Shown here one piece after another: positions 27,952 through 48,049 of a DNA stretch of 64,000 nt. Made by a program: the position numbers and the translations under genes. The stretch's first letter is position 1, and each line of letters opens with the position of its first letter. The notes beneath the pieces were generated by a model. That model saw nothing but the letters and a program-made list of their open reading frames with translations. It made no database searches and had not been told where the DNA came from. This DNA comes from a virus, in UHGV virus genome UHGV-0098755. One strand, given 5' to 3'.

Positions 27952-28142
27952 TTTGAATGCTCTATAATTAATTTTAAAGCTTCTTCACTGACAAAAATTT
28001 CGTCAGGACCTTCTATAACTTCAACCATATGAAGTTGATTAGTTAAGAGCTCACACACGAGCTCTTTGTTATAATCTTTAAATAGCTGGTCAATACGTTT
28101 CTTATGGGCTTTCTTAAGCTGACGTTTATTTAAACGAGCCAT
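27948..28142 (-). CDS. Hypothetical protein (64 aa) in the soc-56 interval
   Basis: ORF. Confidence 0.5.
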   Translation of the reverse strand: MARLNKRQLKKAHKKRIDQLFKDYNKELVCELLTNQLHMVEVIEGPDEIFVSEEALKLIIEHSK

Positions 28143-28660
28143 TAATAGCCTCGGTCTTGACGAGCGAAATTTTCAGCATTTTTCAGATAATAAAGTTTAA
28201 AGATTTCTTCAGCTGACATTCCAAGAGCAATGAATTTATTCATGAAAAAGTGAAATTGGTCAATTAGTTCAAATTTAATTTCAAGTTGATCTTCAGGAGA
28301 TAAATCTTGAATTTTCTTGGATTGCATTTCAGAATAACGTTTCTTCCAAGGTTTCCATACAGCAGAAGCTTCTTTTTCGCCATTGCTCATACCACCAAGA
28401 GAAGTATATAGCTCGCGAGTTTCGTCTGCGATATAATCGTCTTGGTTTCGCAGCCAAGCAAGAACTTCTCCCGCAGTTTCAAGTGAATCGGGATGACGAT
28501 TTGTTTCTGGTTTATCGTTAGCCAAACGAATCTGTAAATGCCGCTGCATGTCAAGCATAACCTGCAATGGGTCAATACTGTGCATAATATACTCAGCATA
28601 TGCACGATTTGCTTTATCAACACCTTCGATCAAATGAGCACATTCATTAAAGTAAGCCAT
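28142..28660 (-). CDS. 56: dCTPase/dUTPase gp56 (about 171 aa from MAYFNE)
   Basis: MazG-like NTP pyrophosphatase sequence; ORF track extends to 28675. Confidence 0.8.
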   Translation of the reverse strand: MAYFNECAHLIEGVDKANRAYAEYIMHSIDPLQVMLDMQRHLQIRLANDKPETNRHPDSLETAGEVLAWLRNQDDYIADETRELYTSLGGMSNGEKEASAVWKPWKKRYSEMQSKKIQDLSPEDQLEIKFELIDQFHFFMNKFIALGMSAEEIFKLYYLKNAENFARQDRGY

Positions 28661-28724: not shown

Positions 28725-29513
<789 letters not shown>

Positions 29514-29570
29514 TCATTTATTGCAGCAAAAACGAATTGTGATAAATATTATTTTTAAGGAGGACAGCGC

Positions 29571-29771
29571 ATGGTACAAAAATTAATGGCACTTGTTAAT
29601 GCCATCAAAGGTAATAAAAAACGTATAGCTTTTACTATTTCTGCTATGATAGGAATTTTACTTTGGAATTTTGTTTTATCGCCAGTTGCTATTGCTCATG
29701 GCGTTAGTATTCCAGTAGTTACTCTTGATACATTCGTAGATTTAGCATTTGCTTTAGTTGGGTTAATTTAA
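29571..29771 (+). CDS. Small membrane protein (66 aa), + strand within a - strand region
   Basis: Strong SD AAGGAGG; hydrophobic; late-promoter-like GATAAATA at 29541-29548. Confidence 0.5.
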   Translation: MVQKLMALVNAIKGNKKRIAFTISAMIGILLWNFVLSPVAIAHGVSIPVVTLDTFVDLAFALVGLI

Positions 29772-33267: not shown

Positions 33268-33630
33268 TTAAAAGAATTTAAATTTTTTCTTTGACCTTTT
33301 ATTAAATGCATCTTGTAGTTGCATTGTAATACATTTTTCTACATGAGGAGCTAACTCAGCTTTTCTTTCTTGGTCAAGAACAGCAAAGTCCATTACAACC
33401 TTTCCATCAACCCAATCCAGTTTAGTTACATACACTATATGTGTAGAACCATCTTCTAGTTTAATGACAATCTCCTGGATAACATTTTCCATGGCAGATT
33501 TAATTATCTTAAGAGATTCATTAAAAAGACGTTCTTTTCTTTCTTCTTCCCCCTCCGAAGAGGGGGATTCATCGATAATTTCTAGATCTAAATCTAAATC
33601 ATCTTTACTCATTAAATTCTTCCATATCAC
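33268..33630 (-). CDS. 40: gp40-like protein (120 aa)
   Basis: Position between 41 and uvsX. Confidence 0.5.
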   Translation of the reverse strand: MIWKNLMSKDDLDLDLEIIDESPSSEGEEERKERLFNESLKIIKSAMENVIQEIVIKLEDGSTHIVYVTKLDWVDGKVVMDFAVLDQERKAELAPHVEKCITMQLQDAFNKRSKKKFKFF

Positions 33631-34786
33631 TTAACTGCTCGAGGTCAGTTTCTAAATCAGCTGCTGATTTACTTTTACTTTCTGGAGATTTAAATTTTTC
33701 AACCTTTGAGTTAATCAATTCATCAACTTCAGCTTCAACAATTTCATTACTATCAATAGCACCTAACTGATAAGCACGTTTAATAGCATCTCGGAATGGT
33801 TGATGCTTAAATAAAGGACCCCAGAATGTAGTGCAGTTGGTATCTTTTGCACGCCAAGATTTTTCTTCGCGAATCATCTCGCCGGTTTCTTCATCAAGAA
33901 ATTCACGAGCATACCAGCCATTTTTAGGTTTTACCACGAATCCTAATTCTAGAGCCATATCTAACAATCCAGAATAAGGATCGATACCACCGTCAAATTT
34001 AACATCAATAAAGAATTTACTTTTTTCTTTAACAGTACGAGATTTTTCTACATTTAGAACAAATTGATACCCCTGAAGATCAGAACCATCTTTAATCTGA
34101 CGCTTACCGATAATGAATACAGTATCAGCCGAATACATTACGCCTGTACCACCTGTCATCACGGTTTTACTAAACATTTCAATTGTTTCAATTGTATGGT
34201 TAACCGCAACACATGGAATATTTTTAATGCTAAAGTAAGGAGTAACAATACGGAATAATGACTTCAGTGATTTAGCACGAGTCATATCTGCCACAGATTT
34301 TTCATTCAAGGCATCTTCCGTTTCTTTCTTAGAAGCCATATTACCGATTGAGTCGATGAATACAATAACTTTTTCACCGCGCTCAATAGCTTCAAGCTGA
34401 TTCACCATATCAATTTTCAGCTGTTCAACTGACTGGATTGGCGTATGAATTACTCGTTCCGGGTCAACCCCCATGGATCGCAAATAAGCTGGAGTAATAC
34501 CAAATTCACTATCATAGAATAGACAAACCGCGTCAGGATATTTGTTCAAATATGCCGCAACCATAGTCAAAGACATATTTGATTTAAAGTGTTTAGAAGG
34601 CCCTGCGAAAATAGTTAAACCAGACTGCATACCGCCATCAATCGCACCAGAAATAGCAATATTAAGCATTGGAATTTTTGTACGAATTACATCCTTTTCA
34701 TTAAAGAATTTAGATGTAGTCAGTTCAGCAGTCATTTTAGAAGTGGAAGCTTTAATCAAACGGGATTTTAAATCTGCAATAGACAT
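33605..34786 (-). CDS. uvsX: UvsX recombinase (393 aa)
   Basis: RecA-fold, 393 aa. Confidence 0.9.
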   Translation of the reverse strand: MSIADLKSRLIKASTSKMTAELTTSKFFNEKDVIRTKIPMLNIAISGAIDGGMQSGLTIFAGPSKHFKSNMSLTMVAAYLNKYPDAVCLFYDSEFGITPAYLRSMGVDPERVIHTPIQSVEQLKIDMVNQLEAIERGEKVIVFIDSIGNMASKKETEDALNEKSVADMTRAKSLKSLFRIVTPYFSIKNIPCVAVNHTIETIEMFSKTVMTGGTGVMYSADTVFIIGKRQIKDGSDLQGYQFVLNVEKSRTVKEKSKFFIDVKFDGGIDPYSGLLDMALELGFVVKPKNGWYAREFLDEETGEMIREEKSWRAKDTNCTTFWGPLFKHQPFRDAIKRAYQLGAIDSNEIVEAEVDELINSKVEKFKSPESKSKSAADLETDLEQLSDMEEFNE

Positions 34787-34863
34787 TCATTTTTTCCATA
34801 GGCATCATTATATTTTCCTCACTGGTTAAAGATAGGGTAATTATAACACAATAAATTTAGGCA

Positions 34864-35712
34864 TTAATCAACTGCTATTGGATGAATAGCATTAAACTTA
34901 TGAAATGCTTCTGATTTTTCTTTACGCGAAACACACATGCGAAGAACCTTTAATGGCTCGTCTTCTTCACCCAACGATTTTCGTTTTTCAATATTAGAAG
35001 TTTTCCAACGAGCTTGCTCTGGAAACTCTCTATTGATTTGCTCAAGCGCTCTATTATGTTTAGAATTACTACGAATTGAACTACACCCGCCAGGAGCTTG
35101 TGCTTTTCCAGATACAACCAGATATTTGAACAAGGCCAAATGCGGATAACCTTGATTAATTAAATTGAGAAATGCATACATATCTTCGCATAAATCAATT
35201 TTTCCATACCCAATTTGTTCTGTCGTAAGTTTTCCAAGGTCATACCATGTATTCGTGAATCCATATGAATTTTCACGATAATTACCCCAAGATGAAGTAA
35301 TTTTAAAAATAGGTAGACGAGCATGGCCATGATAATACCCGCAATCCATGGCATCTTCAACGTATTGAATCAATTCATAGAACTGTTCACGAGTTAATTG
35401 ATTAATTTTATCTACGCAGCGACGATCATCTTTCTTTCGCATTGAACTCATACGAATAGTAGTATCATCATCAATCATCCAAATTCGTTGACCTGCATAC
35501 ATATCAGTAATTGCTTTACGAGTACCAGCAATTCCGTTAACATCATCAGGAATAGTTATAATTTTAGCTCTAGACCCATAAGCGTCATAATAAGCTTTTT
35601 CTTCGTGTTCACGTACTACAATATGAGGTTCATAATCAGTCGGAAACATATCAAGGGCAGAAACTGCCCCTACGCGTTGATAGCTTGGAATTACGAATTG
35701 AATCATTTCCAC
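34864..35712 (-). CDS. DXD-motif glycosyltransferase (282 aa) occupying the T4 beta-gt locus; possibly T2/T6-type beta-glucosyl-HMC-alpha-glucosyltransferase
   Basis: Motif QRIWMIDDDTTI; located between uvsX and 42; does not resemble the 351-aa T4 beta-gt as I recall it. Confidence 0.5.
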   Translation of the reverse strand: MEMIQFVIPSYQRVGAVSALDMFPTDYEPHIVVREHEEKAYYDAYGSRAKIITIPDDVNGIAGTRKAITDMYAGQRIWMIDDDTTIRMSSMRKKDDRRCVDKINQLTREQFYELIQYVEDAMDCGYYHGHARLPIFKITSSWGNYRENSYGFTNTWYDLGKLTTEQIGYGKIDLCEDMYAFLNLINQGYPHLALFKYLVVSGKAQAPGGCSSIRSNSKHNRALEQINREFPEQARWKTSNIEKRKSLGEEDEPLKVLRMCVSRKEKSEAFHKFNAIHPIAVD

Positions 35713-36443
35713 TCACCGTTATAATCTTTTTTCGCAATATGAGTTTCGCCAGTTTTCCACCAATGGTCAACCAAATAAAAATGGCGGGAATACACATGAA
35801 GGCTCCCGACATTCCATATAATGGAACCTGCTTTATACTGACGAGTTGAATCACCTGCATTCAAATCAGATACTAATTTATCTAGTACGTATTTTTGCCA
35901 TGCATAATCATTACGGAATCCGAAGACTACGTCATTTGAACGCATGCTTACTACTGCATTGACTTTCTTATCACGAATCAGGTACTGTACTGTATTCGTA
36001 CACATGAAATCTGACATACCATCTTTATTGTAGTCAAACTGCATGGATGGACGAGTATAAATCATGATACCACGCCGAGAATCAGGATTTTGACCAAGTT
36101 CAGCTAAACACATATCATATTGGGCATAGTTATCTTCTGACCAGATGGCCCAACCATAATTCGAGTTAATTTCGCCTTTAGAAGATGCTACCTGCTGCCA
36201 AATCTTTGGTATTTCACCTGGAATATCTTTAACAAACAGACTTTGAGACTTATACCATTCAAGTTCACGTTGAATGTATTCATCATTAAGAGCGCCAAAA
36301 ATAAAAGGTTCATCTGCTACAAATGATGCACCAATAATTTCAATAGTTTTAACACCGGTTTTATCAATTACGAAATCTTTTTCCTTTAATGCAATTCCTA
36401 AATGAAGACGGATTTCTTCAACTGTCATAGAGTCATTAATCAT
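35703..36443 (-). CDS. 42: dCMP hydroxymethylase gp42 (246 aa)
   Basis: Thymidylate-synthase-like, 246 aa. Confidence 0.9.
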   Translation of the reverse strand: MINDSMTVEEIRLHLGIALKEKDFVIDKTGVKTIEIIGASFVADEPFIFGALNDEYIQRELEWYKSQSLFVKDIPGEIPKIWQQVASSKGEINSNYGWAIWSEDNYAQYDMCLAELGQNPDSRRGIMIYTRPSMQFDYNKDGMSDFMCTNTVQYLIRDKKVNAVVSMRSNDVVFGFRNDYAWQKYVLDKLVSDLNAGDSTRQYKAGSIIWNVGSLHVYSRHFYLVDHWWKTGETHIAKKDYNGEWK

Positions 36444-36596
36444 TTAAACCTCAATTGATACATTCATATTTAACTTGTAACAGTAATAAACTCCACCCTA
36501 TAATAAGCGTTGGAATCATACAAGGAACTGCTACGCTATAGTATATACTTATTATAACCATCAAGATTAAAAGCAATGCTGTTATAATTTTGCTTT

Positions 36597-36848
36597 TCAT
36601 TCCTTCTCTCTGATGATAATTACTTGATTTTGCTGTACAGATTTTTTAGTTTCACCTGCAATTGACCAAATAAATGTAATAAACCAACCAATAATTGACC
36701 AGTTAAACAGTAAAGATGTGAAAAAGATTCCTACTGTCGATTTTGACCCACGCATCAAGGCGATGAACCATGGAAGCATGTATATAATAATAGCCAACAC
36801 ACCTGAAACTAAAACCATAAAAATTGAACCTGCTACTAAAGTTTCCAT
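36597..36848 (-). CDS. imm: Superinfection immunity protein Imm (83 aa)
   Basis: 83 aa, two TM segments. Confidence 0.75.
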   Translation of the reverse strand: METLVAGSIFMVLVSGVLAIIIYMLPWFIALMRGSKSTVGIFFTSLLFNWSIIGWFITFIWSIAGETKKSVQQNQVIIIREKE

Positions 36849-36855
36849 GTTTTCC

Positions 36856-37236
36856 TCACTTAGTCAAATTTTTTACACATGAATTATAAGAATTTACTAC
36901 ATACTCCATCGGAGCATTTTTACCAGTACGCCATTGGTAATTATTAGCCCAATTTGCCCAAAGCTCAGCGCAGTAGTTTTCAATTTTTTCTTCGCGTGTA
37001 ATTACATCCGAATTACGATATGCTTGAGCAGATTCATCTGGGCGAATAGCTTCGTCAAAATTCGCCTGCATCTGTTCTACTGTCTGTTTTGGAGCTTCTT
37101 TATAACACTTGACGTTAGGATTATAAAATTTGCTTGAACAGTTTACAATTTTTCCTACATCAGACTGATTTACTACCGGTCCTTGAGCTACACAACCAGT
37201 AAGACCTAATGCAATAACCAAAATAGCGATTTTCAT
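36856..37236 (-). CDS. Lipoprotein (about 126 aa from MKIAILV)
   Basis: Lipobox LTGC; ORF-track N-terminal 37 aa is translated promoter repeat. Confidence 0.5.
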   Translation of the reverse strand: MKIAILVIALGLTGCVAQGPVVNQSDVGKIVNCSSKFYNPNVKCYKEAPKQTVEQMQANFDEAIRPDESAQAYRNSDVITREEKIENYCAELWANWANNYQWRTGKNAPMEYVVNSYNSCVKNLTK

Positions 37237-37250
37237 TTCATTCTCCAAAT

Positions 37251-37320
37251 CCGTATCAGTTGATAGTTGTATAGTACCACAAAGGAACAGGGATGTAAAC
37301 AGTTTTGTGAAAAAAATTTT
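37251..37320 (-). promoter_or_regulatory. Early promoter, conserved repeat family
   Basis: Near-identical to elements at 6781-6850, 10643-10712, 63651-63720. Confidence 0.55.
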
Positions 37321-37382
37321 TAGGGAATCCAAAGGGTCCAGAATCATCTCTTTTTCATAAGTATAGATTTATATTACTTGTA

Positions 37383-46846: not shown

Positions 46847-48049
46847 TTATTTTGTAATAATGTCAAACTGCTCTTTAAAGCAGAAGCTTGAATCTTGGTG
46901 CTGATACAAAAATTCATAAGCTTTTTCACGTTCACGGTCATAAAGAGCTCGGTCAGATGACAGTTCTTTAATACGTTCAAATGTTGATTCCATGTCATTT
47001 TCATCAAACCAAACGATACCGCTATCGTGTGAAATTAATGGAGTATTATCAACACGGAATTTTAAATTTTCGCCAGTAGATTTCCAAAATACTGGAATTG
47101 TTCCACATGCACCAAGCTCGAGATGAGTGTATTCTAAAGAACGCTGTAGATATTTTTTATCTAATTTACTCAGCTGATAACCAAATCCGGATTTACTCAT
47201 GCGTTCAAGCATTTCGCTATTTACATAACGGTCAAGAATTTGCGTTGGCAAATTAGGAGCAATTTTAATTTGGTCTACTTGATGAAGACGATAATACTCG
47301 TATGGAATTCCTTTTTCTTTAATAGGAATGAACGCTGGAGAACGTTCCAGACCTTCCATAATAGTACTTAGTCCTGCAGGTTTAAGATGTTTTTCATGAA
47401 AATCAAACATCTGATAAAAGCCTTTCCATGTAGTAGTACGACCAATCCAACGGTTGATATTCATGTTAATTTCAGAAACATCTTTCCAGTAGGTTGATCG
47501 AACCTTCGCAATATCCATAGGAGGCTGAAAGTTATATACGGTCGGTGCTTCTTCAATATCATCAAACAAAGAAACAGTTTCCGGATACCATTCTTTCATT
47601 AAAACTTTATTAAAATCACCATTATCAGAATGGCTAAAAATAACATCAGCTCGACGAACAGTTTCTTCTAATCCCAAATTTCGACGCAAAGAAAGAGAAG
47701 AATGGTCATGCTGATAAACTACAACACGAACCGAAGGTTTAATGTTATCAATAATTTTTTTATAGTTATTAATCGTGTCTTCTTCAACTGAAGTAGCAGG
47801 AACTGAATTGATAACTAGAATATCACAATCATTTACCAGCTTAAGTGTTTTATCGTATTCTTTTGCCAATAAAACTGGAATTGAAAATGACTTATAATCA
47901 TGCGCACAATTACGAGTAAATGATTTATCTTTAGCATAAACCAAAGTTACTTCATGACCATTTTTAATAAACCAATCACGCTGCTCAAGAGAAAATTTAG
48001 TTACACCGCAACCTTCAAGACCTCGAGCCATAAAAATACATACTTTCAT
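46847..48049 (-). CDS. a-gt: Alpha-glucosyltransferase (400 aa)
   Basis: 400 aa at T4 a-gt position. Confidence 0.75.
   Translation of the reverse strand: MKVCIFMARGLEGCGVTKFSLEQRDWFIKNGHEVTLVYAKDKSFTRNCAHDYKSFSIPVLLAKEYDKTLKLVNDCDILVINSVPATSVEEDTINNYKKIIDNIKPSVRVVVYQHDHSSLSLRRNLGLEETVRRADVIFSHSDNGDFNKVLMKEWYPETVSLFDDIEEAPTVYNFQPPMDIAKVRSTYWKDVSEINMNINRWIGRTTTWKGFYQMFDFHEKHLKPAGLSTIMEGLERSPAFIPIKEKGIPYEYYRLHQVDQIKIAPNLPTQILDRYVNSEMLERMSKSGFGYQLSKLDKKYLQRSLEYTHLELGACGTIPVFWKSTGENLKFRVDNTPLISHDSGIVWFDENDMESTFERIKELSSDRALYDREREKAYEFLYQHQDSSFCFKEQFDIITK

Follow-up and report, generated by a model that had tools for sequence, protein, structure and literature searches.

The T4 beta-gt locus of a Tequatrovirus genome carries a gene that very probably encodes a T2/T6-type beta-glucosyl-HMC-alpha-glucosyltransferase

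The window, by which we mean the whole 64,000-nucleotide stretch of the viral genome UHGV-0098755 analysed here, contains a minus-strand open reading frame (ORF) at 34864..35712 that encodes 282 aa from a GTG codon and lies between uvsX and gene 42. Its translation includes RIWMIDDDTTIRM, and the WMIDDDTTI stretch that the initial annotation had described is present in the ORF as listed. The length given there requires correction, as the preferred start is not the GTG at 35712 but an ATG two codons further in, at 35706. The gene 42 stop and this ATG read ...GGTGAGTGGAAATGATT..., forming an ATGA stop/start overlap, and the ATG is preceded by a Shine-Dalgarno-like GGTGAG. The representative of the corresponding database cluster, which has 485 member sequences, is 280 aa long, as is the product from the ATG, and the 843-nt coding sequences (CDS) annotated in T2, BGP and TB37 agree with a product of this length. 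The CDS, here called ba-gt (also g-gt, ggt or TAGT), therefore almost certainly spans 34864..35706 on the minus strand, including the stop codon, and encodes 280 aa; the overlap, the cluster representative and the 843-nt CDS in T2 led us to reject the GTG start. Because the codon differences from relatives are mostly synonymous (synonymous to non-synonymous 19:4 against T2, 24:6 against T6 and 23:7 against BGP), they indicate that the ORF is a real gene under purifying selection and exclude a chance ORF. Judging from its position, the start of ba-gt is translationally coupled to gene 42. In the region 34600-36600, a promoter scan performed no better than shuffled sequences (12 hits versus 8.9), and a terminator scan yielded one hit versus 0.9 in shuffles, the sole terminator-like hairpin being located inside coding sequence. 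This GC-rich hairpin (GGGGCAG TTT CTGCCC; 35652-35672, minus strand) covers codons 12-18 of ba-gt, ~35 nt past the start codon, and is kept in T2 and T6; the pairing may arise by chance from the codons for GAVSAL or may represent a regulatory RNA structure.

The genes around ba-gt are those of a T4-like phage. The window belongs to the genus Tequatrovirus: the 24 kb around ba-gt are ~96.3-96.5% identical to Yersinia phage fPS-65, Escherichia phages EP01 and BGP, T2 and others, and the gene order 43 / imm.1 / imm / 42 / ba-gt / uvsX / 40 / 41 is identical to that of T2 and T6. On the upstream side, gene 42 (35703..36443, minus strand), whose stop overlaps the ba-gt start, encodes a protein of the thymidylate synthase family (PF00303, 56.4 bits) that is near-identical to T4 gp42 and annotated in relatives as the dCMP hydroxymethylase, which makes hmdCMP. 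The downstream flank is formed by the gene for the UvsX recombinase (33605..34786, minus strand; identified from the ORF list and by comparison with T4). In T4, the slot between gene 42 and uvsX holds beta-gt together with the homing endonuclease gene segA. No segA lies between uvsX and ba-gt in the window (34787-34863), where T4 has one, and a tblastn search with T4 SegA found nothing in the whole 64-kb window (best E 2.0). Some distance away, at 46847..48049 on the minus strand, lies alpha-gt, the product of which matches the T4 AGT structure over residues 1-400 (PDB 1xv5, E 7.1e-257) as well as PF11440 (782.7 bits). [quoted passage not shown] The window also encodes a Dam methyltransferase (28725..29504; PF02086), and an ORF at 28142..28660 that is collinear with a BGP gene annotated as dCTP pyrophosphatase, its own Pfam match being below threshold.

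Several further features of the neighbourhood were observed. Between gene 42 and imm, a minus-strand ORF (36451-36600) encodes a strongly hydrophobic product of 49 aa, and its stop overlaps the imm region. This ORF is conserved in T4 (L001 7228-7377), with 42 of the 49 residues identical. The T4 RefSeq record does not annotate it, and those of BGP and T2 PV958097 list it as a hypothetical protein. The mechanically called 163-aa ORF at 36856-37347 (minus strand) probably starts at an internal Met (MKIAILVIALGLTGC...), giving a 126-aa product that has an LTGC lipobox, is predicted to be a lipoprotein and corresponds to imm.1 of T4 and T6. Finally, dam and the gene 61 primase are separated by ~260 bp in the window (29505-29767), and the same interval in BGP and T2 contains an extra ~185-aa ORF plus small ORFs; the ~185-aa ORF may be the gene called "restriction enzyme-like" in BGP by the Durham paper.

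The protein encoded by ba-gt is closely similar to the second-glucose transferases of T2 and T6. In a tblastn search of 50,697 phage records with residues 1-282 of the original ORF, identity was 98.2% to T2 and 97.5% to T6; the 280-residue protein differs from that of T2 at four positions and from that of T6 at six, one of which is an amber codon in the T6 record. Matches were found in 691 of these records, 472 of them at ≥95% identity, including T2 and T6, while a second tier at 60-66% identity comprises T4-like phages of Klebsiella, Enterobacter and Salmonella. At the nucleotide level, the gene is present at 95-99% identity in 475 phage records, most of which annotate it as beta-glucosyl-HMC-alpha-glucosyltransferase. 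PHROG 842, which carries the same name, matches residues 2-277 (E 1.9e-89). The Pfam family PF20691 (TAGT, TET-associated glycosyltransferase) scores 38.8 bits, above its gathering cut-off of 27.5 bits, with residues 5-209 of the protein aligned to positions 2-205 of the 205-position profile, that is, across the whole domain; precomputed assignments place PF20691 also on homologues. A Pfam RNA_binding match (E 0.15) was below threshold and was dismissed as chance, and NCBIfam gave no match for either ba-gt or alpha-gt. The sequence identity, the locus between gene 42 and uvsX, and the presence of the partner genes in a window without beta-gt all place the gene with the T2/T6 enzymes. We are therefore highly confident that it is a T2/T6-type beta-glucosyl-HMC-alpha-glucosyltransferase gene of the PF20691 family. 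The search against the T2/T6 enzyme and glycosyltransferase families thus confirms the cautious assignment made in the initial annotation, and T2/T6 orthology, PHROG 842 and PF20691 dispose of its fallback, an uncharacterised transferase. The identity of the gene, its orthology, synteny, fold and partner genes, and the absence of beta-gt are established in this analysis.

The earlier proposal of a GT-A-type enzyme, based on the DXD motif, is borne out by structure prediction. An AlphaFold2 (AF2) model of the protein (mean pLDDT 82, pTM 0.84) has a predicted GT-A fold, consisting of a single Rossmann-like nucleotide-sugar domain with the DXD after a central beta-strand. The motif in question is DDD (D79-D81; 35464..35472, minus strand), which is invariant in an alignment of 11 sequences reaching down to 37% identity and which, in the model, directly follows predicted strand 74-78, the canonical position of a GT-A DXD. 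By analogy with other GT-A enzymes, we infer that D79-D81 hold the divalent metal and the diphosphate of UDP-glucose. PF00535 (Glycos_transf_2) was not matched by the protein at E up to 10, so that by sequence profile it falls outside CAZy GT2 and Pfam PF00535; the likeness to GT2 is structural only. Because of this, the residue roles given here rest on fold analogy. E174 and D175 (LCEDMY; 35182..35187, minus strand), which are invariant columns of the alignment, are candidates for the catalytic base expected in an inverting GT-A enzyme, since the ED/TED motif of GT2 enzymes, the best fold matches, is analogous. Other invariant positions include the N-terminal IPSYxR strand motif (IPSYQR here) with Arg11 (35674..35676, minus strand; His in T2), H126-G127-H128, N146, G149-F150-T151-N152, G206-G207 and R212, and the window protein retains each of the 54 positions that are invariant in the family. 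Residues 133-148 and 202-208, two loops with conserved positions, were modelled at pLDDT below 50, and may become ordered on substrate binding. Since a sequence search against solved structures gave nothing significant (best E only 0.78), no member of the TAGT/ba-gt family has a solved structure. A 2026 NAR paper has equated the T6 enzyme with PF20691/TAGT, and modelled it as a GT-A enzyme in a sister position to GT2 (PMC13216743).

The chemistry and the defence phenotypes considered here are taken from the literature on relatives. In T2 and T6, alpha-gt acts first and places an alpha-linked glucose on hmC, after which ba-gt attaches another glucose to the first through a beta-1,6 bond; gentiobiosyl-hmC makes up ~5% of hmC in T2 and ~72% in T6 (PMC6024577, PMC11078745). 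In the phage studied here, gp42 would similarly make hydroxymethyl-dCMP, which would be taken into the phage DNA in place of C, and the alpha-gt at 46847-48049 would use UDP-glucose to glucosylate hmC in the alpha configuration, creating the acceptor for ba-gt. The latter would then attach the glucose of a second UDP-glucose to the 6-OH of the first, generating gentiobiosyl-hmC. Because a beta product would be formed from the alpha-linked donor UDP-glucose, the mechanism is expected to be inverting, which fits the GT2-like fold. The virion DNA should hence contain bare hmC, alpha-glucosyl-hmC and gentiobiosyl-hmC, and no beta-glucosyl-hmC. Consistent with this expectation, a 2026 AEM paper reports wild Tequatroviruses with alpha-GT plus TAGT, the latter at the locus that corresponds by synteny to T4 beta-GT, in which HPLC/MS detected hmC, alpha-glucosyl-hmC and alpha-gentiobiosyl-hmC, and no beta-glucosyl-hmC; BGP, which is among the closest relatives of the window, belongs to the phages measured (PMC13390438). 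The hmC sugar pattern decides which defences act on a T-even phage, including McrBC, GmrSD/BrxU and the Brig1 and BapA glycosylases. The second glucose shields alpha-glucosyl-hmC from defences that read this modification, such as Brig1 (in vitro) and BapA. A T6 delta-ba-gt mutant contains only alpha-glucosyl-hmC and its DNA becomes a substrate of Brig1 (PMC11078745), and BapA liberates much glucose from T6 delta-g-gt DNA but little from DNA of the wild type (bioRxiv 10.64898/2026.02.25.707755).

It should be noted that the share of gentiobiosyl-hmC is not readable from the gene alone, because it ranges from ~5% (T2) to ~72% (T6) with near-identical enzymes. The ba-gt gene of our phage could, as in T2, be present and contribute little, leaving DNA that is essentially alpha-monoglucosylated, with ~25% bare hmC. 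The T2 orthologue looks intact and yet yields only ~5% gentiobiosyl-hmC (PMC11078745, PMC6024577). We nevertheless regard a minor contribution as unlikely: the gene in the window is free of frameshifts and stops, its start is coupled to gene 42, and its product has Arg11 and Pro251, as in T6 and TB37 and not His11 and Ser251 as in T2. TB37 DNA contains about two thirds gentiobiosyl-hmC (PMC13390438). The protein of the window differs from that of TB37 by only R92K and V101I, both in a variable segment, whereas in two independent records the T2 protein equals the TB37 protein plus R11H and P251S. For BGP, the protein of which differs from that of the window at seven positions, hmC, alpha-glucosyl-hmC and gentiobiosyl-hmC occur at ~1:2:2. 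Residue 11 is Arg in the window, T6, BGP and TB37, as well as in every homologue aligned, the most distant of which has 37% identity. His occupies this residue in T2 AP018813 (L003:3007-3849) and T2 PV958097 (L006:11786-12628).

With one phage per group there is no firm correlation, but the comparison suggests that R11H may underlie the low second glucosylation of T2. The wider proposal, that the low gentiobiosyl-hmC of T2 is due to His11 (plus P251S) and that our phage, having Arg11 and Pro251, would accordingly be of the high-gentiobiosyl type, is tentative, and we consider it more likely to be wrong than right; the sugar ratio of this phage is in any case something that we infer from its alleles. 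Pattern scans of IMG/VR gave no match for the His11 allele and three for the Arg11 allele, which are too few for an allele frequency. If the proposal is true, it would provide a sequence marker that allows the sugars on hmC, and through them the sensitivity of a phage to defences of the Brig1 and BapA type, to be predicted from a genome. Both public T6 records have an apparent lesion in ba-gt, which is odd as T6 defines the activity. In T6 MH550421 (L002:3034-3036), codon 10 is TAG and the gene is annotated from an internal Met, and in T6 AP018814 (L004:3135-3974) one GAT has been lost from the GATGATGAT run, converting DDD into DD. These lesions are either laboratory-stock mutations or sequencing errors.

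A TAGT-family transferase could also use another sugar, another acceptor (for instance bare hmC) or another linkage. PF20691 is functionally diverse, and its members also occur with beta-GT or without any alpha- or beta-GT (PMC13216743); moreover, K92 and I101 of the window protein differ from the T2, T6 and TB37 alleles, although BGP shares I101. However, only 2-6 of the 280 residues differ from T2, T6 and TB37, the two window-specific residues sit in a variable segment of lower confidence, the 54 invariant family positions are retained, the alpha-gt partner is present, and gentiobiosyl-hmC has been detected by HPLC/MS in close relatives (PMC13390438). A different activity is therefore highly improbable, and synthesis of gentiobiosyl-hmC remains our reading of the gene. 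As for a divergent T4 beta-glucosyltransferase (GT-B, GT63), nothing speaks for it except the location next to gene 42 and uvsX, and it is already refuted by the predicted GT-A and not GT-B fold and by a BLASTP comparison with T4 beta-gt (best E 3.4), in line with the lack of resemblance noted initially. PF09198 (T4 beta-gt) gave no match at E up to 10, and a tblastn search with T4 beta-gt found nothing in the whole 64-kb window (best E 1.3).

In summary, the window carries an arrangement that is already known: earlier publications cover the gene and what it does, the GT-A fold of its product and its occurrence at the site where T4 has beta-gt, and its annotation here is routine. The gene is shared with ~475 sequenced T4-like phages, and the arrangement is the commonest in Tequatrovirus. 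The T4 pair of alpha-GT plus beta-GT was found in only 6 of 753 genomes, the usual state being alpha-GT or beta-GT paired with TAGT (PMC13216743); in Tequatrovirus, alpha-gt plus TAGT predominates and the T4 pair is rare. Of the known systems, the T2/T6 ba-gt has the same 280-aa length, slot between gene 42 and uvsX, alpha-gt and gp42 partners and DDD motif, and K92 and I101, both in the variable segment, are the only residues at which the window protein departs from T2 and T6 alike. With the PF20691 TAGT family it shares a full-length match and a GT-A fold with a DXD. The founding members of this family are tied to phage TET/JBP dioxygenases, which oxidise 5mC in DNA; unlike in that case, hmC would here be supplied by gp42 at the nucleotide level, and the acceptor would be the alpha-glucose on hmC and not the base. 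Cellular GT2-family inverting GT-A glycosyltransferases (TarP 6h1j, GlfT2 4fix and BcsA 4p00) are also among the closest known systems. T4 beta-glucosyltransferase (GT63, GT-B), in turn, shares the chromosomal position, the UDP-glucose donor and the beta linkage, but is unrelated in sequence and fold, and its acceptor is bare hmC, whereas that of ba-gt would be the O6 of glucose.
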